Source: Pseudomonadota bacterium (GTDB lineage: Bacteria; Pseudomonadota; Alphaproteobacteria; UBA11222). From it: a stretch of DNA of 64,000 nt. A program made the translations under genes and the position numbers. Of this stretch, positions 3,408 to 45,768 are shown piece after piece. How positions within the stretch are numbered: the stretch's first letter is position 1; each line of letters starts with the position of its first letter. The DNA lies in contig DAIOWE010000001.1 of assembly GCA_036758605.1 (NCBI GenBank), forward strand, positions 935 to 64,934, read 5' to 3'. The notes beneath the pieces were generated by a model, which was not told the DNA's origin, ran no database searches, and saw nothing but the letters and a program-made list of their open reading frames with translations.

Positions 3408-3423
3408 TTAACCAATCGTTTAC
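3408..3423 (+). promoter_or_regulatory. Candidate CtrA box (TTAA-N7-TTTAC) about 68 nt upstream of chpT.
   Basis: Sequence TTAACCAATCGTTTAC, one mismatch from the Caulobacter CtrA consensus TTAA-N7-TTAAC. Confidence 0.3.
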
Positions 3424-3490
3424 CATAAGTGCGCAAGCATTAAAGGGATCATTGATAAAATTTGTAATAACCAAAGGACAGGAAATTCTC

Positions 3491-4126
3491 ATGGATATGG
3501 AAGGGTTTGAGCTGGTTTCGTTGCTGTGCTCGCGCTTGTGCCACGATTTGGTCAGTCCGGTGGGCGCCGTTACCAACGGCCTGGAGGTTCTGGCGGACGA
3601 AACTGACGCCGAAATGCGGGAAATGGCGATGCGCCTGATTACGCAAAGCGCCGACAGGGCTGCACACAGGCTGCAATTTGCCCGTCTGGCCTATGGTTCA
3701 TCAGGCGGTCCTGATGGAATGGTCGATATGGGGGAAGCGAAAAAGGTAACCGCTGCCGTGCTGGAAGATCATAAAATTACCCTGGAATGGCGTTGTGATC
3801 TGGGTGCGACGGGGCGAATGCCGGCTAAATTACTGGCTAACGCCGCCTTTCTGGCTGCTGAATCGCTACCCAGGGGCGGAATTCTGGTCGCGGCCCTTAG
3901 GCAGGAAGGCGGGACGACGAACATAGCAATAAACGCCAGCGGGCCCATGGTGCGCCCCATTGATGGCATGGCAGAAATTCTCAACGGGAACATGGCTGTG
4001 GCCAGCCTGGCGCCCCGCGCCGCCCAGGCCTTTTATACCGGATTGATCGCCCGTCTGATGGGTGGAAATCTGCAAATGTCCGTTCAACCTGAACAATTAC
4101 TTCTGCAAGGCGCGTTCATTATCTGA
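3491..4126 (+). CDS. chpT: Histidine phosphotransferase ChpT (CtrA/CpdR phosphorelay).
   Basis: ATG 3491 with RBS AGGACAGGAAA. Motif LLCSRLCHDLVSPVGAVTNGLEVL matches the ChpT DHp-like His site, followed by a degenerate CA-like domain. About 211 aa. Confidence 0.75.
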   Translation: MDMEGFELVSLLCSRLCHDLVSPVGAVTNGLEVLADETDAEMREMAMRLITQSADRAAHRLQFARLAYGSSGGPDGMVDMGEAKKVTAAVLEDHKITLEWRCDLGATGRMPAKLLANAAFLAAESLPRGGILVAALRQEGGTTNIAINASGPMVRPIDGMAEILNGNMAVASLAPRAAQAFYTGLIARLMGGNLQMSVQPEQLLLQGAFII

Positions 4127-4245
4127 CGCCGATACTGGCTAACTTTACGGCTTCTTAATACGAATCCAGTATCTGTATTGGTACCTGGTGTTTGCAGCGT
4201 TCTAAATCCAAGCCCCAGGATAAGTGCAAAAACGGGGTCAGCGAT

Positions 4246-7056
4246 ATGGACGATTTACTTAGCGAATTTCTGACAGAAACGAACGAAAGCCTCGATGTCG
4301 TCGACGTTGAGCTTGTCCGTTTTGAAAAAAACCCGACGGATAAGGCGGTGCTGGATAATATTTTCCGGCTTGTTCATACCGTTAAGGGGACATGCGGATT
4401 TCTTGGGCTTCCACGCCTTGAATCGGTAGCGCATGCCTCTGAAAATGTGTTGGGAAAGTTCCGCGACGGTGAATTGAAGGTTTCCACGGAAGCGGTAAGC
4501 CTCATCCTGAAATCCATTGATGCGATTAAAACCATTCTGGCGGAATTGGAAGCCAATGAATGTGAGCCGGAAGGTAATGATAAAGAACTGATTGATAAAC
4601 TGAATGAAGTTGCATCCGGTAAAATGGCTGTCTCCGCCCCCTCGCAAGTAGCGGAAGCTGAAAAAAAGAAACCGGTCAAAAAAGAAATGGCCGAAGATAC
4701 CCCCTCAAACAGCTTTGCTGATGGAGAACGCAAGATTGAGCCGGTGCTTGGCCGCGAATTGCTGCCTGGCGAAGTTTCCATGGAGGAGTTGGAAGCTGCA
4801 TTCAACGCGGCGCCAGGCCCCGATGAATGTCCGGCGCCTGTCAAAGTTGCAAAATCCGTTGTGGCCGAAGCCGTTGATGATGATGATGAAACGCAGGACC
4901 ATGCGCCGCAGTCAAATTCCAAAGCTAAAAAATCATCAAACGAGGCGGCGGCAAAGAACTCCGATACATCAATCGCCAATCAGTCAGTCCGTGTAACGGT
5001 TGATCTCCTGGAAGATCTGATGACAATGGTCAGCGAACTGGTGTTGACCCGTAACCAGCTTATGCAAATCGTGCGTGATCAGGAGGACAGTAAATTCAAG
5101 GTGCCGTTGCAGCGCCTGAATCTGGTGACAACCGAGTTGCAGGAAGGGGTTATGAAAACCCGCATGCAGCCGATCGGTAATGCCTGGCAGAAGCTTCCCA
5201 GAATTGTACGTGATCTTAGCCATGAACTGGGCAAAAAGATCGAACTGAAAATGATCGGCGCGGAAACCGAACTTGATCGTCAGGTGCTAGAGTTGATCAA
5301 GGATCCGCTCACGCATATGATTCGAAATTCAGCCGATCACGGATTGGAGAAGCCGGATAAGCGGCTGGCGGCGGGAAAAACCGATCTGGGTACAATCAAG
5401 CTCAATGCCTATCATGAAGGTGGGCACGTCATTATTCAGATTTCTGATGATGGTGCGGGGCTGAATATTGAGCGGATCAAACAGAAAGCCATTTCATCTG
5501 GCCTGGCCACCGAGGCAGAGCTTGAAGAAATGAGCGATTTGCAAATCGGTAATTTTATTTTCAAGGCTGGATTTTCAACCGCCGAGAAAATCACCAGCGT
5601 TTCAGGACGCGGCGTGGGTATGGATGTTGTCCGTACAAATATCGAAAAGATCGGCGGTACAGTTGATGTTCGTTCGACGCAGGGAAAAGGATCTGTCTTT
5701 ACGGTCAAGATACCGCTGACCCTGGCTATCGTGTCGGCGCTTGTCGTGGAATCTTATGGCGAACGTTTCGCCATTCCGCAAATCAGCGTCATAGAGCTGG
5801 TTCGGGCATCAGATAATTCCGAACATAAGATTGAGCAGCTAAAATCATCGCCGGTATTGCGCCTGCGTGATCAGCTTCTGCCGCTTGTCTATCTGAATGA
5901 CGTATTACGGATGAATCGCAAGGCCCCCCCTGTATCAGGTATTGATGGGGGACAGGACAATCTGGTTGCCGGGAAACGCCCCAAGGATGACTTTGTTGTG
6001 GTGACGCAAGTTGGCGCATTTCGCTTCGGTATCGTCGTTGATCGTGTATTTGATACAGAAGAAATTGTTGTTAAGCCGGTTGCACCTATTCTGCGCCATA
6101 TATCTGTGTTCTCCGGTAACACCATTCTGGGTGATGGTAGCGTGATCATGATCCTTGATCCAAATGGTATTGCCAATATGTATGGCAATATTGCGGTTGA
6201 CCAGGATGAAACCAAGGTTGAGGCGGCAGTAACCGAGGAAGGGGATAAAAAGGTCTCGCTGCTAATTTTCCGTGCAGGTGATGACACGCCCAAGGCCGTA
6301 CCGCTATCGCTTGTAGCGCGTCTGGAAGAGCTGGATTGTTCTATCGTTGAACATTCAAATGGACGTGATGTTATCCAGTACCGTGGCCAGCTTATGCCGC
6401 TAGTGCGTATTTCGGATAATTATCCCCTGCGGACAGAGGGGCGCCAGCAGATGCTGGTGTTTACTGATGAAACGCGCACCATGGGTCTGGCAGTGGATGA
6501 AATTGTCGACATTGTCGAAGATGTCCTGAAAATTGAACTCACGTCGGATACCACCGGGATAGTAGGCACAGCAGTCATCGCTAACGCCGCTACCGAGGTG
6601 ATAGATGTAAGCCATTATCTGGTAGTGGCTTTCCCGGACTGGTTTGAGGAAAGCAGGAAAACCAGGGTGAAAGCGGCGCGGCGCATACTCCTGATAGATG
6701 ACAGCCCATTCTTCCGGAATATGCTGGCCCCTGTGCTCGGAACTGCAGGCTACAAGGTAACGGCCGTCGAAAATGCAGAGCAGGCATTGGCGCTGAGAGA
6801 TGAAGGTTTTACATTTGATGCGATTGTCAGTGACATAGAAATGCCGGGGATAAGCGGATTTGAATTGGCCTCCATGATCAAGGCGGATGAGCGCTGGGGA
6901 GATACACCGATAGTCGCAATTTCAGCCCACGGAACAGCCGATGATTTTGAGCGGGGCAGAGCGGTTGGCTTCTCTGACTATGTCGTAAAGATGGACCGTG
7001 GCGCATTGTTACGCAGCCTGACTGAAACCTTGTCGGTATATGGAGAAGCAGTATGA
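4246..7056 (+). CDS. cheA: Chemotaxis histidine kinase CheA with a C-terminal receiver domain (CheA-REC hybrid).
   Basis: N-terminus MDDLLSEFLTETNESL (P1/HPt, …HTVKGTCGFLG…). HATPase domain (…GLNIERIKQKA…GRGVGMDVV…), CheW-like domain, then REC (ILLIDDSPFFR…DAIVSDIEMPGISGFEL…). The track ORF from 4192 starts on a TTG extension. Confidence 0.9.
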   Translation: MDDLLSEFLTETNESLDVVDVELVRFEKNPTDKAVLDNIFRLVHTVKGTCGFLGLPRLESVAHASENVLGKFRDGELKVSTEAVSLILKSIDAIKTILAELEANECEPEGNDKELIDKLNEVASGKMAVSAPSQVAEAEKKKPVKKEMAEDTPSNSFADGERKIEPVLGRELLPGEVSMEELEAAFNAAPGPDECPAPVKVAKSVVAEAVDDDDETQDHAPQSNSKAKKSSNEAAAKNSDTSIANQSVRVTVDLLEDLMTMVSELVLTRNQLMQIVRDQEDSKFKVPLQRLNLVTTELQEGVMKTRMQPIGNAWQKLPRIVRDLSHELGKKIELKMIGAETELDRQVLELIKDPLTHMIRNSADHGLEKPDKRLAAGKTDLGTIKLNAYHEGGHVIIQISDDGAGLNIERIKQKAISSGLATEAELEEMSDLQIGNFIFKAGFSTAEKITSVSGRGVGMDVVRTNIEKIGGTVDVRSTQGKGSVFTVKIPLTLAIVSALVVESYGERFAIPQISVIELVRASDNSEHKIEQLKSSPVLRLRDQLLPLVYLNDVLRMNRKAPPVSGIDGGQDNLVAGKRPKDDFVVVTQVGAFRFGIVVDRVFDTEEIVVKPVAPILRHISVFSGNTILGDGSVIMILDPNGIANMYGNIAVDQDETKVEAAVTEEGDKKVSLLIFRAGDDTPKAVPLSLVARLEELDCSIVEHSNGRDVIQYRGQLMPLVRISDNYPLRTEGRQQMLVFTDETRTMGLAVDEIVDIVEDVLKIELTSDTTGIVGTAVIANAATEVIDVSHYLVVAFPDWFEESRKTRVKAARRILLIDDSPFFRNMLAPVLGTAGYKVTAVENAEQALALRDEGFTFDAIVSDIEMPGISGFELASMIKADERWGDTPIVAISAHGTADDFERGRAVGFSDYVVKMDRGALLRSLTETLSVYGEAV

Positions 7057-7547
7057 GCACGAACACCATGCAGACCGATAACGAAGCGCGCATGCCGGGT
7101 AACACTGCGACCTCAGATTATGTAACGATGAGTGTGGGGGGGCAGTTGTTTGGTATCCCGGTGCTGGAAGTGCATGATGTTTTCGTCCCAAGCAAGTTGG
7201 CCCATGTGCCAATGGCGCCGCCAGAAGTGGCGGGCGTCTTAAACTTGCGCGGTCGAATTGTTACAGCAATTGACCTGCGTCAAAGACTGGGGTTTGAACC
7301 ACGCGATCCTGGCGCTCAGGTTATGGCCGTCGTGATTGAATATCAGGGTGAACCATACAGTTTGCTGGTTGACGCGGTTGGCGAAGTACTAAGCCTTGAA
7401 GCGAATTGTTTTGAACGCAATCCATCCAATCTGGATGCCAAGCTGCGAGATGTGTCAGAAGGTATTTTCAGGCTTGAAGACAGGCTGATGGTGGTAATTC
7501 AGCTTGATAAAATCATTCTTCTGCTGAATGGGGCTATGGCGGCGTAG
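7053..7547 (+). CDS. cheW: Chemotaxis coupling protein CheW.
   Basis: 164 aa; …GGQLFGIPVLEVHDVF…VAGVLNLRGRIVTAIDLRQRLG…. 4-nt overlap with the cheA stop. Confidence 0.9.
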   Translation: MSTNTMQTDNEARMPGNTATSDYVTMSVGGQLFGIPVLEVHDVFVPSKLAHVPMAPPEVAGVLNLRGRIVTAIDLRQRLGFEPRDPGAQVMAVVIEYQGEPYSLLVDAVGEVLSLEANCFERNPSNLDAKLRDVSEGIFRLEDRLMVVIQLDKIILLLNGAMAA

Positions 7548-7585
7548 AAAACTATGTGGGCGTTGGTACAAAGGAGTGCAAGAGA

Positions 7586-7951
7586 ATGAAGTCCTGCCTG
7601 ATTGTGGATGACTCACGCGTCATTCGAAAAGTTGCCCGTCAAATTCTTGAAGATTTACATTTCGACACTCTTGAGGCAGTGGATGGACAAGAGGCGCTTA
7701 ATTTATGCCGTTCTAAAATGCCTGACGCCATTCTTCTCGACTGGAATATGCCCGTGCTGAACGGAATAGATTTTCTTCGTCTGCTTCGCGCGGAAAATGG
7801 CGGTAATTCTCCCGTTGTTATTTTCTGTACAACCGAAAACGATATCAAGCATATCACAGAGGCGATACAGGCTGGCGCCAACGAATATATTATGAAGCCT
7901 TTTGATCGGGAGATCATTGAGACAAAATTTGTCGAGGTCGGGCTTGTTTAG
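7586..7951 (+). CDS. cheY: Chemotaxis response regulator CheY.
   Basis: MKSCLIVDDSRVIRK…LLDWNMPVLNGIDFLRLLR…KPF. RBS AAGGAGTG 7 nt before ATG 7586. Confidence 0.85.
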   Translation: MKSCLIVDDSRVIRKVARQILEDLHFDTLEAVDGQEALNLCRSKMPDAILLDWNMPVLNGIDFLRLLRAENGGNSPVVIFCTTENDIKHITEAIQAGANEYIMKPFDREIIETKFVEVGLV

Positions 7952-7965
7952 TACAGGTATCAAGT

Positions 7966-9147
7966 TTGATTGAAAGGCGTAATTTTGTGTCAATTGTATC
8001 CCATCCCAATAATTCTGTTGCAGTGAATGTTGATTCAGTGGGGCCTGTCCGGGTGATGCTGGTTGATGATTCAGCCGTTATTCGGGGAATGCTGCATCGC
8101 TGGATTTCTGCTGATCCGGAGTGCCAGATCGTCGGCTCCTATCACAATGGTGCGCAGGCGGTACAGCACGTAAAATCATCCGGCGCGGAAATTGTAATTC
8201 TTGATATTGAGATGCCTGAAATGGATGGTTTGACGGCATTGCCGCTCATAATCAAGGAAGTTCCGGGTATTCAGGTATTAATGGCGTCAACGCTGACGCA
8301 CCGGAATGCGGACATCAGCATTCGCGCGCTTTCAATGGGGGCCGTTGATTATCTGCCCAAGCCTGAATCGGCACGCAGCGGTACTGCGACTGCGGATTTT
8401 CAGCGCGAGTTATTGTTGAAGGTAAAATCTCTTGGCGCCGCAATGCGCAAGGGGAAACGGGGCGGCGCGCAAATGCCCGTTCGGCCTACGGGTGTAGCAC
8501 CTCGCGCAGCGGTCAAGATGGGCACTCAAGCAAAAGAAATTATCTTGCGATCGCATTCAAAAACGAAACCGGACATTCTTGCTATTGGAAGTTCAACAGG
8601 TGGTCCACAGGCGCTGTTTGCTTTGCTTGGGGGCTTAAAAAAGGCGATTACTGTGCCCGTTGTGATTACACAGCACATGCCACCAACCTTCACTGCAATC
8701 CTGGCAGAACATATTCGGAGTTCTACTGGTATACCTGCCCGTGAGGCGGCGCATGGTGATCCGTTACGTAATGGCGAAATTTTGGTCGCACCTGGTAATT
8801 ATCACATGACAATTGTCCGTAAGGGCGCAGACAAAGTGGTTCATCTGGATCAGAATGCGCAGGTGAATTATTGCCGTCCTGCGGTAGACCCAATGTTTGA
8901 GAGCATCGCTGCAATTTACGGCGCCGGTGCGCTTGGCGTCATTTTAACAGGAATGGGTCATGACGGGCGTGACGGCAGCCGCAAACTGGTAGAGGCTGGC
9001 GGTTCTGTCATTGCGCAGGATGAAAAAAGCAGCGTCGTATGGGGGATGCCGGGCGCAGTTGCAGAAGCTGGCTTATGCAGTGCAGTTGTTCCATTATCTG
9101 AGATGGCTATATTGCTAACGCGCTATCTTAAGGGAGTTGCCGCATGA
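7966..9147 (+). CDS. cheB: Protein-glutamate methylesterase CheB (REC plus methylesterase). Start uncertain: TTG at 7966 with AGGT upstream, or ATG at 8056.
   Basis: …VRVMLVDDSAVIRGML…ILDIEMPEMDG… REC domain; the C-terminal domain …GSSTGGPQAL…HMTIV…GMGHDG… is typical of CheB. Confidence 0.85.
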   Translation: MIERRNFVSIVSHPNNSVAVNVDSVGPVRVMLVDDSAVIRGMLHRWISADPECQIVGSYHNGAQAVQHVKSSGAEIVILDIEMPEMDGLTALPLIIKEVPGIQVLMASTLTHRNADISIRALSMGAVDYLPKPESARSGTATADFQRELLLKVKSLGAAMRKGKRGGAQMPVRPTGVAPRAAVKMGTQAKEIILRSHSKTKPDILAIGSSTGGPQALFALLGGLKKAITVPVVITQHMPPTFTAILAEHIRSSTGIPAREAAHGDPLRNGEILVAPGNYHMTIVRKGADKVVHLDQNAQVNYCRPAVDPMFESIAAIYGAGALGVILTGMGHDGRDGSRKLVEAGGSVIAQDEKSSVVWGMPGAVAEAGLCSAVVPLSEMAILLTRYLKGVAA

Positions 9148-10025
9148 AACCAGGTGATTTCGAATTTCTGGCAAACTTTCTGAAGAGCAGTTCCGGCCTC
9201 GTGCTAGGAGCTGACAAGATGTATCTGGTTGAAAGTCGGCTGTTGCCAATTACGCGCAAACGAAATCTGCCCGGCCTGACTGAACTTGTTCAAGAATTAC
9301 GGCTTGGAAAAGACCAAAGTCTTATCCAGGATGTCATGGAAGCAATGACCACGAATGAGTCATTTTTTTACCGTGATAAAATGCCTTTTGATAATTTACA
9401 CGCCGAGGTGTTGCCAAAATTTTTGATGGCTCGCCAATCACAGCGGCAATTGCGTATATGGTCTGCGGCGGCCTCAACCGGCCAGGAACCCTATTCCATT
9501 GCCATGATTTTGAAAGAAATGGCGGCGTCGTTTCAGGGGTGGCGTGTTGATATTATAGGCACAGATATTTCTAAAGAAGTCCTGGAAAAGGCGCGCGCAG
9601 GCATGTACAGCCAGTTCGAAGTACAGCGCGGTTTGCCAATTCAGATGCTGGTAAAATATTTCAAGCAAATTGGTGAAATGTGGCAGGTCGATGCTGCCTT
9701 GCGCGCCATGGTTCAGCTAAAGGAAGGCAATCTGCTTTCAAGTTTTTCCGGATTGGGAGCATTTGATATAATCTTCTGCCGGAATGTGCTGATCTATTTC
9801 GACCAGGCGACCAAGAAGGATGTGCTCGAACGTATGGCAAAGCAAATGCCGGACGATGGGGTTCTGTTTCTTGGTGCGGCGGAAACCGTACTTGGTTTAA
9901 CAAATTCTCTTGTCCCCATAAAGGGATTGCGCGGTGTGTATACCAAAGCATCGTCTGTTGCGGAGAAGAGTTTGCCAGCATCATCCGAGTTGAAGGCGCC
10001 CATTTGGGCTGGCTTGGCCAGATAG
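9144..10025 (+). CDS. cheR: Chemotaxis protein methyltransferase CheR.
   Basis: 293 aa; …FFYRDKMPFDNL…IWSAAASTGQEPYSIAM…DIIFCRNVLIYFD…. 4-nt overlap with the cheB stop. Confidence 0.9.
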   Translation: MKPGDFEFLANFLKSSSGLVLGADKMYLVESRLLPITRKRNLPGLTELVQELRLGKDQSLIQDVMEAMTTNESFFYRDKMPFDNLHAEVLPKFLMARQSQRQLRIWSAAASTGQEPYSIAMILKEMAASFQGWRVDIIGTDISKEVLEKARAGMYSQFEVQRGLPIQMLVKYFKQIGEMWQVDAALRAMVQLKEGNLLSSFSGLGAFDIIFCRNVLIYFDQATKKDVLERMAKQMPDDGVLFLGAAETVLGLTNSLVPIKGLRGVYTKASSVAEKSLPASSELKAPIWAGLAR

Positions 10026-10045
10026 CTCATTCAAAATTATTTTCA

Positions 10046-10083
10046 CAAAAAAACACCCCAGGCTTATTGGGGTGTTTTTTTTG
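10046..10083. terminator. Bidirectional rho-independent terminator between convergent cheR and ctrA.
   Basis: AAAAAAACACCCCAGGCTTATTGGGGTGTTTTTTTT: 6-7 bp GC stem flanked by an A-run and a T-run. Confidence 0.6.
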
Positions 10084-10099
10084 CTTATTTGGAAATGTG

Positions 10100-10807
10100 T
10101 CAGGCAGCTTTTTCTTTGCTAGCAACGGGCGATTCAGAATCGCGAAGAACGTAGCCGCGCCCCCAAACAGTTTCGATATAATGTTCAGAGCCGGTTGCCG
10201 CCGCCAATTTCTTGCGGAGCTTGCATATAAAGACGTCGATGATCTTGAGTTCGGGTTCATCCATCCCGCCATAAAGATGATTAAGGAACATTTCCTTGGT
10301 CAGCGTCGTTCCCTTGCGAAGCGAAAGCAGTTCGAGCATCGCATATTCCTTGCCGGTCAGATGAACCCGATGGCCATCAACTTCGACGGTCTTGGCGTCC
10401 AGGTTCACGGTCAATTGCCCGGTTTTGATTACAGACTGGGCGTGGCCCTGTGATCTGCGGACAATCGCATTAATACGGGCGATCATTTCATCCTTATGAA
10501 ATGGCTTGGTCATAAAGTCGTCAGCGCCGATGCCAAGCCCCTGAACCTTGCTTTCCATATCGGACAGACCGGAAAGAATTAAAATAGGCGTGGAAACCTT
10601 TGCCTGTCGCAGTTTTTTCAGAACGTCAAAGCCGCTCATGTCGGGCAGATTCAAATCGAGAATGATGATATCGTAGTCATAGAGCTTGCCTAAATCCAGG
10701 CCCTCCTCCCCCAAATCGGTAGTGTATAAATTAAAACCGGCCTGGTTAAGCATAAGTTCAATGCCCTGAGCTGTTGCGCTATCGTCTTCAATTAGGAGAA
10801 CTCGCAT
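10100..10807 (-). CDS. ctrA: Cell-cycle / motility master response regulator CtrA (OmpR family).
   Basis: [20 protein letters not shown]…[33 protein letters not shown]…[53 protein letters not shown] is near-identical over long stretches to the remembered Caulobacter CtrA. Confidence 0.9.
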
Positions 10808-11031
10808 GGCTTTTTTTCCCGAGATGTCGTTTGGTTAATAGCAACATAAGGCAAAAAGGTTAAAAAAGGTTAACAACAATTATTTTTATTCCCAATTTTT
10901 TCGACCTGAAGTGAACAAATAAAAAATTATAAGCGTTTGTATTAATTTATATAATTAGCTCTTTACGTGGTCTTAAGTGGTTTCTCCTATTCTCCCGATT
11001 CAATGATTAAACTATTTACGGCGGTATTGGC
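10808..11031. promoter_or_regulatory. AT-rich divergent ctrA / fliI control region. Contains a tandem AAAAGGTTAA direct repeat giving TTAA-N6-TTAAC (10860-10874).
   Basis: About 70% AT in a GC-rich genome. CtrA-half-site-like TTAAC motifs 50-65 nt upstream of the ctrA ATG. Confidence 0.35.
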
Positions 11032-12336
11032 TTGCAATCCTTACTAGCAGAAATCGAACGAATCCAACCCTATAGCTATTATGGACGGGTTGTCAGTGTG
11101 CAGGGCCTGTTGATCGAGGTTAGCGGCATCCATTCTGTTAGTGTTGGGGCCCGCGGTGTGATTCACGCCCGTGACACCCAGGAAATAGGCTGCGAAATTG
11201 TCGGTTTTAGGCAGGAACGCGCTCTTTGCATGGCGTTTGGGCCGCTTGAAGGCATTGGTTTGGGCTGTAAGGTGGTCATCACGTCTCATGATCCGTCGAT
11301 TCGGCCGGCTAAAAACTGGCTTGGAAGAGTTATCAACGCGATGGGGGAGCCCATTGACGGCAAGGGGCCGCTGGGCGCCGGTCCTGCCGGTTATGCGCTG
11401 CGGGCAAGCCCCCCTCCGGCGCATTCCCGTCAGGTTGTTGGACGCAAGCTTAACCTTGGGGTCAGGGCGATTAACAGTTTTGCGACTTGTTGCCGGGGAC
11501 AGCGCATGGGCATTTTTGCGGGCTCCGGTGTTGGGAAATCGGTCCTGCTATCAATGCTTGCGAAAAACACCGATTCAGATGTCACGGTGATAGGGCTTAT
11601 AGGTGAACGTGGCCGTGAGGTGCGGGAGTTCATAGAAGAAAATCTGGGTGAGGAAGGACTTAAGCGCAGCGTAATCATCGTCGCGACGTCGGATGAGCCG
11701 GCCTTGATGCGGCGTCAGGCCGCTTATGTGACAATGGCCACGGCCGAATATTTTCGTGATCAGGAATTAGATGTTTTGTGCCTGATGGATTCCGTTACCC
11801 GTTTTGCAATGGCTCAGCGCGAAATTGGCCTTTCCAGCGGAGAGCCTCCAACAAGCAAGGGATATACGCCGACGGTATTTTCAGAATTACCGAAGCTGCT
11901 TGAAAGGGCCGGGCCCGGTATATCCAAAGGAAGTATCACTGGATTATTCACGGTGCTGGTTGAAGGGGATGACCATAATGAACCGGTTGCAGATGCGGTC
12001 CGTTCTATTCTGGATGGGCATATTGTTCTGGAACGCGCCATTGCGGAACGTGGACGTTATCCGGCGATAAATGTTTTGCGTTCAGTTTCTCGTACCATGC
12101 CGAAATGTAATTCACCTGAAGAGACTAAATTGATCATCCGTGCAAGAAAACTTCTGGCGGTTTATGAAGACATGGCGGAAATGGTTCGCCTTGGTGCATA
12201 TCGCGCCGGCGCGGACATAGAAGTTGATGAGGCCGTGAAGCGGTTTCCATTGCTCGACAGGTTTTTAGAACAGAAGCCCGATGAGCTTACTGCGTTTGAT
12301 GCGGAATTTTCGTATCTGGCGGAAATACTCGGTTAG
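11032..12336 (+). CDS. fliI: Flagellum-specific ATPase FliI (TTG start).
   Basis: Walker [14 protein letters not shown]; …ERGREVREF…; overall F1-beta/FliI pattern. Confidence 0.9.
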
Positions 12337-12349
12337 TTAGGTACTGTAA

Positions 12350-12784
12350 ATGAAAACACGCAACACTCTTGTCCGCTTGCACAAGTGGCAGGTCGATGAA
12401 AAGCGCAAGCGCCTGGCGGAACTCTATGCATCTCGCGCGGATTTTGAGAAAAGAATGCAGGCGGTGGAAATTTCTATTGTCCGGGAGCAGGCGTTCATCA
12501 ACTCGGAAACCGGAATTCATGGCGATGTAGGTTTTTCTTACGGCGCATTTGCACAGGCCGCTATCATGCAGCGCGAAAATATCCAGAGATCCATTCAGTC
12601 AATTGATGAAATGATTGTTGAAGCGCTGGAATCTGTTGGTGAAGCTTACAAGGCGCTTAAGCGGCAGGAGATTGCCGCCGCCAACCAGGCATCCCGGAAA
12701 ATAAAAGAACGGGATCGTTTGGAGCAGATTGCAAGCGACGATCAGGCGGTTGAAAGCCATCAACGCAAAGCATCCGGGAAATAA
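12350..12784 (+). CDS. fliJ: Flagellar export chaperone FliJ (coiled-coil).
   Basis: 144 aa charged coiled-coil protein immediately after fliI; MKTRNTLVRLHKWQVDEKRKRLAEL… fits the FliJ family. Confidence 0.6.
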   Translation: MKTRNTLVRLHKWQVDEKRKRLAELYASRADFEKRMQAVEISIVREQAFINSETGIHGDVGFSYGAFAQAAIMQRENIQRSIQSIDEMIVEALESVGEAYKALKRQEIAAANQASRKIKERDRLEQIASDDQAVESHQRKASGK

Positions 12785-12913: not shown

Positions 12914-13807
12914 TCATATCAGGCCCCGTGGCGTCCGCGTTTGCAGTGACGCTGCAATCTGCTGAACCTGCTGGGCAGATTCACTTTGCGGATAACGCGC
13001 CAGAAGCGGTGCCTGCGCGCGGATCGCCTGGGTAACGTGCTTGTCCCGGATGATATAACCCGCCATTTTTGGGGTAAATTGCAGAAAATGTTCGCAGGCG
13101 CGATGTACAGCACCGAAAGTTTTTTCGGCCTGTGTCCTGCTGTCCGCCATATTCACAATAATTCGAATATCCAGTTCAGGGTGTGTCATTGCAAGAAATT
13201 TTATCATCGCATATGCATCGGTGATTGATGTGGGATCATCCGTTACGACGATCAGCGCCTTTCCGATGCGGGAAAATAAAGGCATCATGTGGCTGTTCAT
13301 TCCGGCAGCCAGGTCCACGATCAAATGATCATACTGGATGGCAGCCTTTATCAGGTCGCTGCACAATGTTTCAATCTGCCTGCGGCTCAAAGTGTCCAAT
13401 GCGCCGGAACCAGATCTTCCTGCCAGCACATCAAAGCCCATTGCGGCACGATGCGTGGATACGCTGCCGACGCTCGCGGGTAACGCTCCGCCCGAAAAAG
13501 CGGATATGGCGCCGGCGAAGCTGATTTTACCGGCCACGACACTTGCCAGGTCATGTATGGGGGACATGGCAAGCTGCACATCCACATTGGCCAATCCCAG
13601 GTCGCCATCTACCAGTAATACACGGTTCCCAAAACCGGCCAATGCCTGTGATAAAGTAATTGAAAACCAGGTTTTTCCGACGCCGCCTTTGCCGGATGCA
13701 ACAGCAATAAGATTGCTTTGCCGCGCCAATGCGCGCCTGCTGGAATTAATTTCTCCGTCGACAGATAATATTCTCGCGGGTGAGGTCAATACGGGTTCCT
13801 CCGTCAT
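12914..13807 (-). CDS. flhG: MinD/ParA-type ATPase FlhG (FleN/MotR-like flagellar number regulator).
   Basis: Deviant Walker A AVASGKGGVGKTWFS; …LLVDGDLGLANVDV…. Start is ATGA-coupled to the flhF stop. Confidence 0.8.
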   Translation of the reverse strand: MTEEPVLTSPARILSVDGEINSSRRALARQSNLIAVASGKGGVGKTWFSITLSQALAGFGNRVLLVDGDLGLANVDVQLAMSPIHDLASVVAGKISFAGAISAFSGGALPASVGSVSTHRAAMGFDVLAGRSGSGALDTLSRRQIETLCSDLIKAAIQYDHLIVDLAAGMNSHMMPLFSRIGKALIVVTDDPTSITDAYAMIKFLAMTHPELDIRIIVNMADSRTQAEKTFGAVHRACEHFLQFTPKMAGYIIRDKHVTQAIRAQAPLLARYPQSESAQQVQQIAASLQTRTPRGLI

Positions 13808-14796
13808 TGTGCGGCCTGCTCCAGTTCTAAAAATGATTCATGTTCTGCCGGATCCTCGAGCAAAAGGCGTGCTAGTGCGACCGGTGTTATTGAGGCCAGG
13901 CCATTCGCCACAAAAGGCGTAATGCTGACATGATGCAGTGTCATGGCTGCGGCCTCAAGTGCACCTAATATGCTTCCTAACCGTCTTGTTACATCCAGTT
14001 TTGTAACAATCATGCCACGGGCGCCAAGGCCGGAAAAAATGTTGACGATCTCACATGCTTCAACAGAATCGCCACCGGCAGGCAGCACCAGAACCGGATC
14101 GCAATCAACAGCCATGACAAGGTTTCTGAGAGACTTTAGCTCAGTCAAATTAAACGGAGACGTTCCGACAGTATCAATAATGCAATTTTTTATACTCTGC
14201 TTTGAATCTAATAAGGCGGCCAATTCCATGCCGTCGGCGGCCCGGTGCATCGGTACATTCATAGATCTTGCATAAGCTTCAAGCTGCTCTGCGCCGCCAG
14301 TACGGACCAGGTCAGTTGTAATCAGCATCGTCTCGTTACCTGCAAGAACCGATCGTGCGGCGAGTTTTGCAGCGGTAAGGGTTTTACCGGCGCCAGTTGG
14401 TCCAATTAATAAAATAGGCCGCACGGGATGTATTGGAATAGAAGCAAAATCGTAACGCAACTCCAGAGCCGCAGCCAGGGCCTGTACCGGATTACAGGCT
14501 GCCATTGTTCCCAGTGTTTCCAGTAGCATGGCGTTAATTGCTTGTGGTGCGCGATGAAAGGTTAGGGCGTTTTCTATACCGTCAAATGTGTCTTGATGTT
14601 TCCCATCTAAAAAGGGGGCCTGCATTTCCTGAAATTGCGGGTTTTCCGGAGAGGAATGTTCGACTGCTGCGCGTATGGAAACCTTGCCATTGCTTGTGCA
14701 CTCGCTACTCAGGATTATCGCATCAGGGCCTAGCGTCGCGCGCAATTCTGCCATTGCGGCTTCCATGGTTGCTGCGGTAATCGTTCTAAAGCGCAC
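13804..14796 (-). CDS. flhF: Flagellar biosynthesis SRP-type GTPase FlhF (GTG start).
   Basis: N-terminus MRFRTITAATMEAAMAELRATLGPDAIIL matches the FlhF B-domain start. G-domain LLIGPTGAGKTLTAAKLAA…DTVGTS. Confidence 0.85.
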   Translation of the reverse strand: MRFRTITAATMEAAMAELRATLGPDAIILSSECTSNGKVSIRAAVEHSSPENPQFQEMQAPFLDGKHQDTFDGIENALTFHRAPQAINAMLLETLGTMAACNPVQALAAALELRYDFASIPIHPVRPILLIGPTGAGKTLTAAKLAARSVLAGNETMLITTDLVRTGGAEQLEAYARSMNVPMHRAADGMELAALLDSKQSIKNCIIDTVGTSPFNLTELKSLRNLVMAVDCDPVLVLPAGGDSVEACEIVNIFSGLGARGMIVTKLDVTRRLGSILGALEAAAMTLHHVSITPFVANGLASITPVALARLLLEDPAEHESFLELEQAAQ

Positions 14797-14810
14797 TTTT
14801 TTGGTTTTCC

Positions 14811-16922
14811 CTATATTTGCCCAATGGTGCGGATTTTAGCTTGCGGATGGATTTCATTTTGAGAGACGACGCTCGTTTGGGGGCGGAAGCGTTCCACAAT
14901 CGAACGTACGAAAGGACGGATGAATGGGCTGCACAGCAGGGCAGGGACCTGTCCTGCCTCGGCGGCCTGATCAAATTTCAGACGCACTGCACCAATAAAT
15001 TCCTGCAACCGGCTTGGCTGCATCGCCAATTGCCGGTCATCACCCTGGCCAATAATTGATTCCGCAAAGATTTGTTCCCATTCTGGTGACAGGCTGATTA
15101 GCAGTACATATCCGCTGGGACCAATATTCTGATGGCATATCTGGCGCGCCAGCCGTGCACGGACATGTTCGTTGATGGCCCCGATATTCTGACTAAATCC
15201 AACTGCTTCAGAAATACCTTCCAGTATGGTAGGCAGGTCACGAATTGAAACGCGCTCGGCAAGAAGAAGTTGCAGTATGCGCTGAATACCCGACAGGGTG
15301 ATTTGTGACGGCGAAATATCATCCAGCAATTTTTGGTGTGCCGGTGGCAGATCATCCAGCAATTTCCGCGTCTCGCCATAGGAGAGCAATTCACGCATGT
15401 TTTGCTGTACGGTTTCTGTCAGATGGGTCGTAATCACCGTGGGCGGATCGACGACCGTATAGCCGCGGAACGAAGCTTCCTCGCGCAGGGATTCGTCAAT
15501 CCACATTGCCGGCATTCCAAATGTAGGCTCTTTTGTTTCCACACCCGGCAGATCAATTGGCGCGCCACGGGGGTCCATTACCAGCAAATGGCCAATTCTA
15601 AGTTCACCACTTCCGGATTCAACTTCCTTTACGCGGATAACATAGCCGTTGGCAGGAAGCTGAATATTATCCAGAATTCGCACAGAGGGCATGACAAACC
15701 CCATTTCCGATGCAATCTGTCTGCGTAACGCCTTAATCTGATCCGTCAACGGATGATTGCCTTGCTCATTGATAAGCGGAAGCAAGCCATAGCCAAGTTC
15801 AAGGCGTAAATCATCTATTGCGAGCGCCGTTTGAATGGGCTCGTCAGTTGTCGGTGTTTGCGCTGCCTTGATTTGCTCGTCTGCAATGGTTTCCAATGCC
15901 TCGCGTTTGCTTTTGGTGACGTACCATGCCAGCCAGCCAGAACCCACCGATAACACAAAGAAGGGAAAAAATGGCATTCCGGGAAGCAATCCCATAAGTC
16001 CGAGCAGGAACGAGGACAGGCCAAGCGCCTGCGGATAGCCCGAAAGCTGGGTGACCAATACCTTGTCGGCGGCGCCGCTTACACCGGCTTTTGAAACCAG
16101 CAAACCCGCTGCTGTCGAAACAATAAGAGCAGGAATTTGCGTTACCAGGCCATCGCCGACTGTCAGCGTGGTGTAGGAGCTTCCTGCCTCTGTGAGGCTA
16201 AGGCCTTTTTGTGCAACACCAATAATGATGCCGCCAATTACATTGATAAAGGTAATCATCAACCCTGCAATGGCGTCACCACGCACAAATTTGGCGGCGC
16301 CGTCCATTGCGCCAAAGAACGAGGATTCATCCTCCAGTTCTTTGCGGCGGAATTTCGCGGTGCTTTCATCTATCAAGCCCGCACTTAAATCGGCATCAAT
16401 AGCCATCTGTTTACCAGGCATCGCGTCCAAGCTAAAGCGTGCGGCAACTTCGGCAATGCGGCCGGAACCTTTTGTGATTACGACAAAGTTTACAATCATC
16501 AATATGGCGAACACGATAATGCCGATGACGAAGTTTCCCTCCATCACCAGATTGCCAAAAGCATGAATGACCTGACCGGCGGCTTCGGTTCCTGCATGTC
16601 CCTCGGCAAGAATTAATCTTGTGGAAGCGAGATTAAGTGACAAACGAAGCATTGTTGAAATCAGCAAAATAATTGGAAAAGCGCTGAAATCCAGTGGTTT
16701 TTCAATAAACAGCGACGTCATCAAAATTAGCACGGAGAATGTAATCGATAGTGTGAGCGCAAAATCCAGCAGCCATGCCGGAAGGGGTATAATCAAAACC
16801 ACCAGAATGCCGATAATACCCAACGCAATGCCAATATCGCCACGCATTGTGGCGAGACGCACGCTGGTCATCAGTCCGCCCAGGGTAAGACCGGTGACTG
16901 GAGATGCGGGGCTATCACTCAT
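14811..16922 (-). CDS. flhA: Flagellar export apparatus protein FlhA.
   Basis: 703 aa; N-terminal membrane domain (…FPIILLISTMLRLSLNLASTRLIL…) plus cytoplasmic FlhA_C domain. Confidence 0.95.
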   Translation of the reverse strand: MSDSPASPVTGLTLGGLMTSVRLATMRGDIGIALGIIGILVVLIIPLPAWLLDFALTLSITFSVLILMTSLFIEKPLDFSAFPIILLISTMLRLSLNLASTRLILAEGHAGTEAAGQVIHAFGNLVMEGNFVIGIIVFAILMIVNFVVITKGSGRIAEVAARFSLDAMPGKQMAIDADLSAGLIDESTAKFRRKELEDESSFFGAMDGAAKFVRGDAIAGLMITFINVIGGIIIGVAQKGLSLTEAGSSYTTLTVGDGLVTQIPALIVSTAAGLLVSKAGVSGAADKVLVTQLSGYPQALGLSSFLLGLMGLLPGMPFFPFFVLSVGSGWLAWYVTKSKREALETIADEQIKAAQTPTTDEPIQTALAIDDLRLELGYGLLPLINEQGNHPLTDQIKALRRQIASEMGFVMPSVRILDNIQLPANGYVIRVKEVESGSGELRIGHLLVMDPRGAPIDLPGVETKEPTFGMPAMWIDESLREEASFRGYTVVDPPTVITTHLTETVQQNMRELLSYGETRKLLDDLPPAHQKLLDDISPSQITLSGIQRILQLLLAERVSIRDLPTILEGISEAVGFSQNIGAINEHVRARLARQICHQNIGPSGYVLLISLSPEWEQIFAESIIGQGDDRQLAMQPSRLQEFIGAVRLKFDQAAEAGQVPALLCSPFIRPFVRSIVERFRPQTSVVSQNEIHPQAKIRTIGQI

Positions 16923-16964
16923 ATTATGTTTCTACCATGACGAATGGAACTGTGTATTTCCTCA

Positions 16965-18350
16965 TCATGCAGAAACACGATCCACGGAATCTCCGGCCGG
17001 GGCGGGAATATTTATCCCCGTATCACGGTACGCATTCAGCTTGTTACGCAACGTCCTGATGGATATGCCAAGTATGTTTGCCGCATGTGTGCGGTTTCCA
17101 AGGCAATGATTGAGCGTATTCAGGATTAAATCCTGCTCTACATCCGCGACAGTGCGTCCAACCATGCCGCGCACTGTGTCTTCAGCTGTGGATGCTGCGC
17201 GAGCCGCCGGTCCAGTAGCGATGGCAGCGTGCGCGGGATATTGCTGTGTTGACCCATCAGGCAGAACAATGGCTTCCGGTTCTATCTCACTCATCTGAGA
17301 AAGTAACAATGCGCGATGAATGGTGTTTTCCAATTCACGAACATTACCTCTCCAGGGGTGCGCCTGCAGCAGGTGGCGGCTCTTTTCAGAAATAGGTTTC
17401 TGGGGCAGCCCGTTTGACTTGGCATATTTTTCTACAAAATATTTAGCCAAGGCAATAATGTCGCCCGGCCGTGCCCGCAATGGCGGGATAGAAAGATTTA
17501 CAACATTCAAACGGTACAGCAAATCCTCACGGAAAGTGCCATTGCGCACCGCCTGCAACAAATCAACGTTTGATGTGGCGATAACCCGGATATTCACCTT
17601 GATAGGTTTGCCGCCGCCGACGCGGTCAATTTCACGTTCCTGTAATGCGCGAAGCAGTTTTGCCTGTAACCGCACATCCATTTCACTAATTTCATCAAGC
17701 AGGATCGTGCCGCCTTCGGCCTCTTCGAATTTACCGATGCGCCGCGCGATAGCACCCGTGAAAGCGCCTTTTTCATGCCCGAATAATTCTGATTCCAGCA
17801 GGTTTTCCGGAATGGCAGCGCAGTTAACTGAAATAAACGGCATATCCGACCGCTTGGATTTTCTATGTACATAGCGGGCCATTACTTCTTTGCCCGTGCC
17901 GGATTCGCCGGTTATCAGAATGCTGGCCTCGCTGGGCGCAACCTGATCCGCCATGCGCAAGACGGCGGCCATGGCTGCATCGGAATAAATCACCTTGTGT
18001 GTTTCATCAGAAACCGCCTCCAGTATTGCCGCGATAAGAACGGCATCTGGGGGCAGTGGAATATATTCCTTGGCGCCAGCGCGAATGGCATTTGCCGCTT
18101 GTTCGCTGTCCGCATTAATTCCACATGCCGCTACCGGAACATGAATATGTTCAGCATCAAGCTGTTTGATCAAACGTGCAATATCAAGATTGACATCAAC
18201 CATCAACAGATCGGCCCCACGGCCGTCACGTAGCGCAACGAGAGCATCATCTATATTGCCGGCAATAGATACTTTAGCTCCTTTTTCTATGGCTATTTTG
18301 GACGCGGCCCCCATCTCGCCATTCATATTTCCTATAATCAGTATACGCAT
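16965..18350 (-). CDS. flbD: Sigma54-dependent flagellar transcriptional activator FlbD (FleQ/FlrA class).
   Basis: REC-like N-terminus MRILIIGNMNGEM…GADLLMVDVNLDIA…HVPVAACGI…AGAKEYIPLPPD closely resembles Caulobacter FlbD. AAA+ domain GESGTGKEV…GAFTGA…, C-terminal HTH. Strong RBS AAGGAGAT. Confidence 0.85.
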   Translation of the reverse strand: MRILIIGNMNGEMGAASKIAIEKGAKVSIAGNIDDALVALRDGRGADLLMVDVNLDIARLIKQLDAEHIHVPVAACGINADSEQAANAIRAGAKEYIPLPPDAVLIAAILEAVSDETHKVIYSDAAMAAVLRMADQVAPSEASILITGESGTGKEVMARYVHRKSKRSDMPFISVNCAAIPENLLESELFGHEKGAFTGAIARRIGKFEEAEGGTILLDEISEMDVRLQAKLLRALQEREIDRVGGGKPIKVNIRVIATSNVDLLQAVRNGTFREDLLYRLNVVNLSIPPLRARPGDIIALAKYFVEKYAKSNGLPQKPISEKSRHLLQAHPWRGNVRELENTIHRALLLSQMSEIEPEAIVLPDGSTQQYPAHAAIATGPAARAASTAEDTVRGMVGRTVADVEQDLILNTLNHCLGNRTHAANILGISIRTLRNKLNAYRDTGINIPAPAGDSVDRVSA

Positions 18351-18374
18351 CTTTATATCTCCTTATGACGGTCA

Positions 18375-19142
18375 TTAATCGAAATAGCGGACGCGCTTCG
18401 CCGGTGGCAAGATAGAATTAATCAGCATTTCAAGTCGTCTTGGACTTTCCTGACGGCTTATTGAAGCAGCGCCAAGGGCATAAATATTCAGCACCATGGC
18501 TTCATTCGCGGAATTCCGTTCAAGCTTTGATGCAAGCGGCGCCAGCACCATATTTGACAAGACCGCGCCATATAATGTGGTCAACAACGCCAATGCCATG
18601 GCCGGACCGATGCTTTCCGGCTGCTGTAAATTTCCGAGAAGTTGAACCAGCCCCAAAAGCGTTCCTATAAGGCCCATGGCTGGGGCAACTTCAGCAGCGC
18701 GCCGCAGCACCCCGGCGCTACGATTGTGGCGGTTTACCATGGCAGCCACTTCCTGACGCAGTATGCGCTCTACCTCAGCAGGCGGAATTCCGTCCAGCAT
18801 CATCGCAAATCCATGCGCCAGCATGGGTTTGTCATTAATTGATTTCATCAGCCGTTCGATATCCTTTTCGCCTTGACGGCGAGCACGCTCGGAAATCGCA
18901 ATGACTTCGCGCGCGATGCTTTGAATGTCATCGCGTGCAGTAAAAATGGTTTGCAATATCATGCGCTGTGTATTCATAATTTCTGGAATCGAATAGGAAA
19001 TCATTGTCACGGTGACGGTCCCGCCCATTACTATGAGTAGTGAAGGGATGTCGATAAATGCGATAGCGGAACCGCCAAGCAAGATGGCAATGAACAATAA
19101 AATGATGCCGCCGCCAAGGCCAAGAACTGTTGCGAAATCCAT
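18375..19142 (-). CDS. motA: Flagellar stator protein MotA/PomA family.
   Basis: 255 aa, 4 TM. …AAEVAPAMGLIGTLLGLVQLLGNL… is typical of the MotA/TolQ/ExbB channel family. Confidence 0.8.
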   Translation of the reverse strand: MDFATVLGLGGGIILLFIAILLGGSAIAFIDIPSLLIVMGGTVTVTMISYSIPEIMNTQRMILQTIFTARDDIQSIAREVIAISERARRQGEKDIERLMKSINDKPMLAHGFAMMLDGIPPAEVERILRQEVAAMVNRHNRSAGVLRRAAEVAPAMGLIGTLLGLVQLLGNLQQPESIGPAMALALLTTLYGAVLSNMVLAPLASKLERNSANEAMVLNIYALGAASISRQESPRRLEMLINSILPPAKRVRYFD

Positions 19143-19166
19143 TTTCCAATACTCCAGATCCAGAAA

Positions 19167-19538
19167 CTAGGTTCTGTCGCCCTTGATGATTTCAGTCATG
19201 GTCACCCCCAGCCTGTCATCAATCACAACAACTTCACCGCGCGCTACAAGACGGTTGTTAACGAAAATATCTATCGCTTCGCCGACCTTGCGATCCAGCT
19301 CAACAATAGTTCCAGGCCCCAGCTTCATAAGCTGGCTGACTTCCAGATATGCTTTTCCAAGAACAGCAGAAACATTCACCGGAATATCGAACACTGCTTC
19401 CAGTTCGTTGGCTGAGCGAGCCCCGCCTTCTTCATTTGTCAGGCTGCCATCGACATTGCCATCTGTGGTAACAGAAGGCAGGCCATGCTGAACTTCATCT
19501 TCGAGATTTTCCCAGTCAATTCCGTTTTCATTACTCAT
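19167..19538 (-). CDS. fliN: Flagellar motor switch protein FliN.
   Basis: C-terminal SpoA domain …LMKLGPGTIVELDRKVGEAIDIFVNNRLVARGEVVVIDDRLGV…. ATGA-coupled to the upstream gene. Confidence 0.85.
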   Translation of the reverse strand: MSNENGIDWENLEDEVQHGLPSVTTDGNVDGSLTNEEGGARSANELEAVFDIPVNVSAVLGKAYLEVSQLMKLGPGTIVELDRKVGEAIDIFVNNRLVARGEVVVIDDRLGVTMTEIIKGDRT

Positions 19539-20248
19539 TTTGTAGAATCCATAAATTTTTGGTTGGCATCAATTTCAGTATTTTTGGGTGTAACAAAATC
19601 CGGTTCCACACCGGCATCAATTGAATCAACCCGGGATACATAGTTGGCAATCACCTGATCGATATGCTCAAGCTGTTCAGGTGAACGGTAGCTGACCCCT
19701 CCATCTGCCCACTCAATTACACATTGCGCGGGTGTCGTGTCAGGGACGCCAATAAGTATGACCCGCCCGGGGTAGCCTGTCGTAATCGTGATGCGATCAA
19801 TTTTTTCTTTTAATATATCAATTAATTTTTCATCAACCTTCAGCACGATGCGGGGCTCTGTATTAAGATTGGACAAACATGATAGAAAAAGCGCTTCGAT
19901 TTCCGCCGTTGGATTTTCCGCTATCAATACCGATGCCAGTTTTTTGGCGATTACCAGCGCCAATTCGGCAGATTGCCTGCGCAGAATTGCAATGTGTCCG
20001 GAAACTTCGGAAATAAGCGTGGAATATTGCGAAAGTAGCGCCGACAGGGTTTCTTCAGCCTGTTTTTCAATTTTAAACAGCGCCGAATCTTTGCCCGCAA
20101 TTACGCCTTCTGCAAAAGCCGCATCCTGGATTTCTTTTATCTGGTTGTCTGTATAGGAACGTTTTTTTTGCGCCGCGAAGCTGTCCCGTAACGTATCGCT
20201 ATTTTGCGTATCCAGATTTTGAAATGTAAATTTCAGGTTTTGTGTCAT
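19535..20248 (-). CDS. fliH: FliH-like flagellar assembly protein (Caulobacter FlbE position).
   Basis: 237 aa between fliG and fliN; the C-terminal …QCVIEWADGGVSYRSPEQLEHI… resembles the FliH C-terminal domain. Confidence 0.55.
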   Translation of the reverse strand: MTQNLKFTFQNLDTQNSDTLRDSFAAQKKRSYTDNQIKEIQDAAFAEGVIAGKDSALFKIEKQAEETLSALLSQYSTLISEVSGHIAILRRQSAELALVIAKKLASVLIAENPTAEIEALFLSCLSNLNTEPRIVLKVDEKLIDILKEKIDRITITTGYPGRVILIGVPDTTPAQCVIEWADGGVSYRSPEQLEHIDQVIANYVSRVDSIDAGVEPDFVTPKNTEIDANQKFMDSTK

Positions 20249-20254
20249 GGCCGG

Positions 20255-21265: not shown

Positions 21266-21285
21266 AATTTTCGCTGCCTCTTTAC

Positions 21286-23062: not shown

Positions 23063-23078
23063 GTGAATATCTCGTTAA
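23063..23078 (-). promoter_or_regulatory. Candidate CtrA box TTAA-N7-TTCAC immediately upstream of fliF (read on the minus strand: TTAACGAGATATTCAC).
   Basis: One mismatch to TTAA-N7-TTAAC. Caulobacter fliF is a CtrA-dependent class II promoter. Confidence 0.3.
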
Positions 23079-23104
23079 TGACGGCTCAAACTGTTTGTTA
23101 GCTA

Positions 23105-23460: not shown

Positions 23461-23637
23461 TTTGTTACCCGTAGCTCATGCCAAAACTGGCTTCCTGTTA
23501 AAACTGGCTCTTTGTGATGCGGCCATTTTTATTGAGACTCATAATATCACCGGGCCATTAAAGAAGCGCTAAAGGTCACAGTTAAAAATGCGATAAAGCT
23601 ACATATTAACAATGACTTAATTAAGTATCGCAAAGCT

Positions 23638-26295: not shown

Positions 26296-26306
26296 AATCG
26301 TTTTTC

Positions 26307-45763: not shown

Positions 45764-45768
45764 GGGTA

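Follow-up and report, generated by a model that had tools for sequence, protein, structure and literature searches.

CtrA module genes within a conserved chemotaxis and flagellar gene cluster of an uncultured alphaproteobacterial lineage

In Rhodospirillum rubrum, the genes for chemotaxis and for the CtrA phosphorelay accompany flagellar genes, and in strain S1 the loci RRU_RS02725 to RRU_RS02755 encode in succession ChpT, a CheA-type hybrid of 942 amino acids, a single-domain response regulator, CheB, CheR, CtrA, and FliI (PMC12363192, Table S2C). The same core order is present in a 64-kb stretch of contig DAIOWE010000001.1 (assembly GCA_036758605.1; Alphaproteobacteria, UBA11222), referred to here as the window, in which chpT is followed by a cheAWYBR operon, ctrA, fliI, and a fliJ-like gene within a flagellar cluster that extends to about 31.7 kb. 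The locus probably represents an ancestral alphaproteobacterial motility supercluster with the CtrA module (chpT, ctrA, and sciP) inside it. R. rubrum and the organism of the window belong to distant lineages, and ChpT of the window shows at least 57% identity inside its clade and at most 46% identity to any named genus. R. rubrum also differs in that its cckA gene adjoins flhB-fliR-fliQ, whereas the window contains no cckA, and in that its listing shows no separate small cheW, which is present in the window.

Caulobacter has dispersed chpT and ctrA genes and an essential CtrA; in the window, by contrast, chpT, the che operon, and ctrA are contiguous. The window resembles the Caulobacter crescentus hierarchy (CtrA for class I, FlbD and sigma-54 for class III/IV, and feedback through SciP) in that its CtrA, SciP, and Caulobacter-type FlbD all pass the corresponding equivalog cutoffs, with CtrA-type boxes at early promoters and sigma-54-like elements at hook-gene promoters. 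The Caulobacter order fliF-fliG-x-fliN-...-flbD-flhA, with sciP between flgE and fliF, is the same as that of the window. Brucella abortus has adjacent chpT and ctrA genes with a CtrA-binding site upstream of chpT, where the window shows a candidate box, and the Brucella chains of 4QPJ are the best matches of the window ChpT and CtrA receiver. No che operon separates the two genes in B. abortus, and the upstream neighbor is eipA in contrast to cysQ in the window. The relay of the Rhodobacterales (Phaeobacter, Dinoroseobacter, and the fla2 system of Cereibacter) activates flagellar, chemotaxis, and cyclic di-GMP genes; similarly, CtrA-like boxes lie upstream of a GGDEF gene in the window. The three relay genes of the Rhodobacterales are dispersed outside the flagellar gene cluster, whereas chpT and ctrA of the window lie inside it.

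The putative ChpT matches the Pfam family HPTransfase (PF10090), which represents the C-terminal pseudo-CA domain, with 86.7 bits (cutoff, 22.9) over profile positions 2 to 122 of 123. The phospho-accepting residue His18, contained in SRLCHDLVSPVGA (SRLCHDLVSP motif) as part of the CHD motif typical of an N-terminal DHp-like helix, is invariant in 15 diverse homologs and aligns to the Brucella ChpT chain 4QPJ_A. All matches in the PDB are ChpT structures from Brucella and Caulobacter (4QPJ/4QPK, 4FMT, and 4FPP). CtrA scores 418.8 bits against its NCBIfam equivalog (cutoff, 350) and contains the Pfam domains Response_reg and Trans_reg_C. Its receiver domain matches the Brucella CtrA chain 4QPJ_C with an E value of 6e-56, and the protein is 77 to 88% identical to CtrA homologs adjoining chpT in other orders. 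The C-terminal KAA is kept within the clade, and all 35 of 35 CtrA homologs end in AA, TA, PA, SA, AS, or AV. The KAA end resembles the Caulobacter ClpXP degron, and the small-residue ends fit a C-terminal degron of the ClpXP type.

The open reading frame (ORF) listing and the profile searches bear out the gene positions that a first-pass annotation had given for chpT, the cheA-W-Y-B-R operon, ctrA, and fliI-fliJ, and the gene map from 3491 to 12784 agrees with its claim that the CtrA-module genes lie physically inside the che/fla cluster. The product assigned to chpT by that annotation could have belonged to another family; only ChpT models and ChpT structures match it. The absence of cckA from the window, also noted there, is seen again in the ORF listing and the profile searches, as the only ORFs of at least 650 amino acids are cheA, flhA, fliK, flgK, and the gene for a type II secretin. 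The conserved ATGGACGATTTACTT and the gene calls of the related locus L001 place the cheA start at 4246. CtrA is encoded tail to tail with cheR, with a terminator in common, and head to head with fliI across a spacer of 224 bp. The fliJ-like ORF shows 30 to 38% identity across loci. The locus is known solely from metagenomes and metagenome-assembled genomes (MAGs) labelled Alphaproteobacteria or Pseudomonadota. Judged by the identity of the neighboring proteins, Parvibaculum is the closest cultured genus (81 to 85% for CtrA and 67 to 70% each for FliI and FlhA).

The conservation of the gene order was determined with a ChpT-alignment scan of one genome per GTDB species, and homologs of the window proteins were located in the 80 loci returned. 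Linkage was counted in the 43 loci whose sequence extends 9 kb or more beyond the 3' end of chpT, with ctrA defined by at least 70% identity within 10 kb. By this measure ctrA accompanies chpT in 27 of 43 loci, with divergent orientation in all of them, and the che operon lies directly 3' of chpT in 23. Both features together, as in the window, are found in 15 of the 43 loci and neither in 8, so that linkage of chpT, ctrA, and the che operon is widespread. The succession of ctrA and fliI is kept in 19/43 loci, and cysQ is the immediate upstream neighbor of chpT in 62 of 73. The full block cysQ-chpT-cheA(REC)WYBR-ctrA-fliIJ, in which REC stands for the receiver domain, occurs in Kordiimonas, Flaviflagellibacter, Methylobacterium, Rhodoblastus, one complete Bradyrhizobium genome, and many MAGs. 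Parvibaculum shows the order cysQ-chpT-ctrA-fliIJ-flhG-flhF-flhA-flbD-fliN with the che operon absent. Among the matches listed from 80 metagenome loci, sciP as a rule has flgD/flgE and fliF-G-H-N as its neighbors or is found close to ctrA. Since the same block recurs across genera and the core order is published for R. rubrum S1, the layout of the window is a case of inherited synteny, widespread and documented before, in a lineage new to it and not a peculiarity of this organism. Many Bradyrhizobium draft contigs (L032, L036, L038, L039, L044, L047, and others) end about 1 to 2.5 kb after chpT, in or just before cheA, which suggests that these assemblies break at a repeated che operon.

The base composition of the block differs from that of its surroundings. 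The G+C content is 0.49 to 0.51 across 4 to 32 kb compared to 0.54 to 0.59 in the flanking DNA, and the G+C content at third codon positions (GC3) is 0.42 to 0.56 in the fla genes compared to 0.57 to 0.68 in the flanks. The block is thus lower in both measures than the flanking housekeeping genes, though it occupies a conserved ancestral position. A recently acquired che/fla/ctrA island with its own regulator would explain the lower G+C content. Such an origin is extremely unlikely, as the block adjoins cysQ in the 62 of 73 species mentioned above, which belong to several orders, and has unchanged acyl-CoA dehydrogenase and CMD neighbors in relatives whose ChpT is only 63 to 74% identical. No integrase, tRNA, or repeat boundary was seen. 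Recent horizontal acquisition of the che/fla block was therefore rejected on the basis of flanking genes conserved across orders.

CtrA target sites follow the consensus TTAA-N7-TTAAC or TTAACCAT. A scan of the whole window for TTAA-N7-TTAA with at most one mismatch, combined with alignment of the spacers to those of relatives whose ChpT is 58 to 91% identical, reveals near-consensus sites upstream of chpT, cheA, ctrA, fliI, fliF, and sciP (Table 1). The element TTAACCAATCGTTTACCAT forms the sole conserved island in the otherwise diverged spacer upstream of chpT and carries one mismatch to the core. In locus L088, the most distant relative, the chpT box is a perfect TTAA-N7-TTAAC followed by CAT. 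The site TTATGTTGCTATTAAC upstream of ctrA is a probable autoregulation site. In the five sequences compared at fliI, TTTACGTG-N3-TTAAG is exact in three, one base off in L008, and replaced by TTAAGGGGGTATTAAG in L089. Intergenic DNA makes up 5.8% of the window and holds 14 of the 24 distinct box sites with at most one mismatch. The count of 24 compares with 8.3 ± 4.4 in dinucleotide shuffles of intergenic DNA, and only 1 of 300 shuffles reached it. Direct control of the motility genes by CtrA is likely because of the conserved boxes upstream of chpT, cheA, ctrA, and fliI and the similar ones at fliF and sciP. Flagellar genes under CtrA control are reported for every alphaproteobacterial order studied (PMC8116508). 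A scan of the window for sigma-70 promoters and Rfam and tRNA scans yielded nothing informative. Two further TTAA-N7-TTAA-like sites with one mismatch each (55251 to 55280) immediately precede the gene for a GGDEF diguanylate cyclase (55280 to 56377); cyclic di-GMP genes are core CtrA targets in the Rhodobacterales.

Table 1. Positions in the window of the CtrA-module, chemotaxis, and flagellar genes and of the candidate regulatory elements
Feature	Position	Strand	Basis or remark
CtrA-box-like TTAACCAATCGTTTACCAT, TTAA-N7-TTTAC then CAT	3408..3426	+	65 nt upstream of chpT ATG; kept in 7/7 relatives
chpT, histidine phosphotransferase, 211 aa	3491..4126	+	Pfam HPTransfase; ChpT equivalogs (below cutoff); His18; PDB
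Box TTTACGGCTTCTTAA, TTTA-N7-TTAA	4144..4158	+	chpT-cheA spacer, about 87 nt before cheA ATG; kept in 7/7 relatives
cheA, hybrid with C-terminal receiver, 936 aa	4246..7056	+	Pfam Hpt, H-kinase_dim, HATPase_c, CheW, Response_reg
cheW	7053..7547	+	Pfam CheW, 104.8 bits
cheY, 121 aa	7586..7951	+	Pfam Response_reg; top NCBIfam matches are CheY; start as in L001 gene call
cheB, methylesterase	7987..9147	+	Pfam CheB_methylest and Response_reg; NCBIfam CheB, 395.7 bits (cutoff, 293)
cheR, methyltransferase	9144..10025	+	Pfam CheR and CheR_N
Bidirectional intrinsic terminator, cheR and ctrA convergent	10047..10081	.	15-pair stem between A-run and T-run
ctrA, OmpR-type response regulator, 235 aa, C terminus ...KEKAA	10100..10807	-	NCBIfam CtrA equivalog
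CtrA-box-like TTATGTTGCTATTAAC	10834..10849	-	27 nt upstream of ctrA ATG; kept in 5/5 relatives; one mismatch
Repeat TTAAAAAAGGTTAAC, TTAA-N6-TTAAC, atypical spacing	10860..10874	+	ctrA-fliI spacer; kept in 5/5 relatives
Box TTTACGTGGTCTTAA, TTTA-N7-TTAA	10962..10976	+	About 55 nt upstream of fliI start; largely conserved
fliI, flagellar export ATPase	11032..12336	+	NCBIfam FliI_clade3, 649.3 bits (cutoff, 587)
fliJ-like gene	12350..12784	+	Weak: 17.6 bits to TIGR02473; fliJ position after fliI kept across genomes
Packed run fliF-fliG-fliH-like-fliN-motA-flbD-flhA-flhF-flhG	12914..23037	-	Pfam; FliH-like and FlhF matches; gaps of at most 42 nt
flbD, sigma-54 activator	16965..18350	-	Caulobacter-type NCBIfam FlbD equivalog, 783.2 bits (cutoff, 750)
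Two overlapping CtrA-box-like sites, TTGAGCCGTCATTAAC and TTAACGAGATATTCAC	23064..23089	-	Upstream of fliF; scan
sciP, CtrA inhibitor, 95 aa, DUF1153	23173..23460	-	NCBIfam SciP equivalog, 133.8 bits (cutoff, 100); Pfam PF06627, 131 bits
Three CtrA-box-like sites, 24 nt apart	23558..23620	-	Upstream of sciP; one with perfect TTAA-N7-TTAA core
fliK-flgD-flgE, hook genes, late class	23675..28322	-	Pfam
Sigma-54-like element, then flgK and flgL	28631..31743	+	Element at 28631..28645; Pfam

The position of a hybrid CheA directly after ChpT raises the question of a connection between the two proteins, in which the C-terminal receiver of CheA would exchange phosphoryl groups with ChpT, either passing or draining them, and chemosensory input would tune CtrA. 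The pairing is nearly invariant: in 33 of 33 complete loci with cheA after chpT, drawn from several orders, the CheA kinase core is trailed by a receiver-like segment, which belongs to the same ORF in 30 of them, and the 942-residue protein of R. rubrum occupies the same position. In addition, the spacer of 119 nt between chpT and cheA shows no terminator-like site, and ChpT normally docks on receiver domains, as in the 4QPJ complex. Despite these features the exchange is very unlikely. The CheA receiver is 22% identical to the CtrA receiver and no closer to it than to CheY or CheB, the spacer contains its own conserved promoter-like box, and Parvibaculum has adjacent chpT and ctrA genes without a che operon. 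A literature search turned up no paper linking CheA to ChpT. Many alphaproteobacterial che systems with no known link to ChpT use a hybrid kinase of the CheA-receiver type, which also counts against the coupling. If such a link were true, chemoreceptor activity would tune CtrA and hence flagellar gene expression, and the chpT box of the clade would add positive feedback.

The cluster also encodes two regulators that the first-pass annotation overlooked, SciP and FlbD, so that the window holds three CtrA-pathway genes (chpT, ctrA, and sciP) together with flbD as a second-tier regulator. The packed run from fliF to flhG, which includes flbD, is probably one operon. Sigma-54 elements of the -24/-12 type with one mismatch lie at the divergent promoters of fliK (28413 to 28427, minus strand) and flgK (28631 to 28645, plus strand), as expected for FlbD-dependent late flagellar genes, and neither promoter carries a CtrA box in the TTAA-N7-TTAA scan with at most one mismatch. 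A database entry listed for the alga Phaeothamnion confervicola as an "unnamed protein product" is identical to SciP. It probably stems from bacteria contaminating the algal assembly and may point to a habitat associated with algae.

On the model of the Caulobacter and Rhodobacterales systems, a multistep regulatory cascade can be proposed for the ancestral supercluster. Here, CckA, encoded outside the window, would phosphorylate ChpT, which would then phosphorylate CtrA. Phosphorylated CtrA would bind the TTAA-N7-TTAA-type boxes at chpT, the cheA operon, ctrA, fliIJ, the fliF-to-flhG run with flbD, and sciP, and would act as the top-level (class I) activator of the flagellar and chemotaxis genes with positive feedback on chpT and ctrA. 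In the following step FlbD and sigma-54 would switch on the hook and junction genes (fliK-flgD-flgE and flgKL), and SciP would exert negative feedback on CtrA.

Several observations weigh against an ancestral supercluster regulated in this way. The top of the relay is assumed, as cckA lies outside the 64-kb window. ChpT falls below both NCBIfam ChpT equivalog cutoffs, with 189.4 compared to 240 for the Brucella/Rhizobiales model and 174.8 compared to 225 for the Caulobacter model. Both models are lineage specific and are the sole NCBIfam matches of the protein, with no other family represented; the product is treated as ChpT in spite of these scores. Four of the conserved boxes are one mismatch off the TTAA-N7-TTAA core, and one box shows the N6 spacing. 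For the fliF and sciP boxes, the ten contigs with identical SciP are 96 to 100% identical in DNA and thus uninformative as to conservation; a metagenome scan with SciP for closer relatives gave 66 to 80% identity among the matches listed and served the synteny comparison, not footprinting. The chpT box was rejected as an ancestral feature because it is present in only 12 of 77 other species, and for the same reason CtrA feedback on chpT looks specific to the clade. Finally, the loci L007 and L088, with ChpT identities of 91% and 58%, keep cysQ-chpT-cheAWYBR without ctrA-fliI after cheR, and linkage of ctrA is therefore not obligatory.

The two loci contain different genes in place of ctrA-fliI. 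L007 carries SDR, fatty-acid hydroxylase, ArsC, and GNAT genes (13400 to 17464), and L088 carries pckA together with a ChvI/ChvG-like pair (16774 to 20645). Rearrangement or misassembly of the MAGs could account for the missing genes.

The first-pass annotation went beyond the arrangement and took the linkage to suggest that the CckA-ChpT-CtrA relay acts mainly as a motility switch. In its strict form this reading holds that the relay serves mainly or only motility and that the cell can live without it, as is the case in Rhodobacter, Magnetospirillum, and Rhodospirillum centenum. It is conceivable and somewhat improbable for the organism of the window. The promoters of the window that bear boxes and can be assessed belong to motility or CtrA-pathway genes and one GGDEF gene, the core gene order recurs in R. 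rubrum, a member of the Rhodospirillales, and the chpT box, which would imply that CtrA feeds back on its own relay, is a clade-specific feature. The literature likewise proposes an ancestral motility role for CtrA (PMC8116508). The distribution of the linkage speaks against this reading. The neighboring genes chpT (bab1_1613) and ctrA (bab1_1614) of Brucella abortus are both essential, with transposon insertions in either one not recovered (bioRxiv 10.1101/442541). The converse is seen in Phaeobacter and other Rhodobacterales, in which the relay is the motility master regulator although none of its three genes belongs to the flagellar gene cluster. The block itself occurs not only in the Rhodospirillales but also in Bradyrhizobium, Methylobacterium, and other Hyphomicrobiales. 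Since linkage does not track function in these groups, it is not predictive of the essentiality or dispensability of ctrA. The gene identities, the embedding of the module in the motility cluster, and the likely control of motility genes by CtrA thus stand, whereas the step from linkage to a relay that is mainly a motility switch is unsupported. A search for ctrA essentiality in organisms with the full block included a Bradyrhizobium transposon sequencing supplement, in which ctrA is not named.

Other features of the window point in the direction of a Caulobacter-like system. The build of the cluster is Caulobacter-like, with SciP, a Caulobacter-type FlbD, and the order fliF-G-(H)-N-flbD-flhA, and the degron-like KAA end of CtrA is kept in the clade. 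The motif GANTC is the methylation site of CcrM. It occurs 124 times in the window compared to about 215 expected, a ratio of 0.57, and this depletion weakly fits a genome carrying CcrM. The hint is weak because CTNAG is equally depleted, the two tying as the lowest of 12 gapped palindromes, and because GANTC shows no intergenic enrichment. Taken together, SciP, the FlbD type, the KAA end, and the GANTC depletion are weak hints that lean, if anything, to a Caulobacter-like system. Profile searches found no genes for DivL, DivK, DivJ, PleC, CpdR, RcdA, GcrA, or CcrM in the 64-kb window, which also contains no origin or cell-division genes; cell-cycle genes on which a role restricted to motility could be judged are absent from it.

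Beyond the motility cluster, type II secretion genes follow directly after mnmA (33052 to 37401) and encode a GspL/PilN-like protein, GspM, a product of 157 amino acids without a family match, and the GspD secretin. A cluster for an aa3-type cytochrome c oxidase (cox2, cox1, ctaB, ctaG, cox3, and surf1) is located on the minus strand from 43509 to 49521.

The ancestral motility supercluster remains the preferred reading of the locus, and the arrangement as such is already known. The lineage in which it is found is new, and the earlier observation is extended by sciP, flbD, and a set of conserved CtrA-type boxes. An uncultured alphaproteobacterial lineage thereby joins the species in which the CtrA module lies within the motility cluster, and the wide conservation of the block from cysQ to fliIJ fits the published idea that CtrA originated as a motility regulator. 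The locus opens no new question; its main practical value is one of caution against predicting CtrA essentiality from the presence of chpT and ctrA next to che/fla genes.

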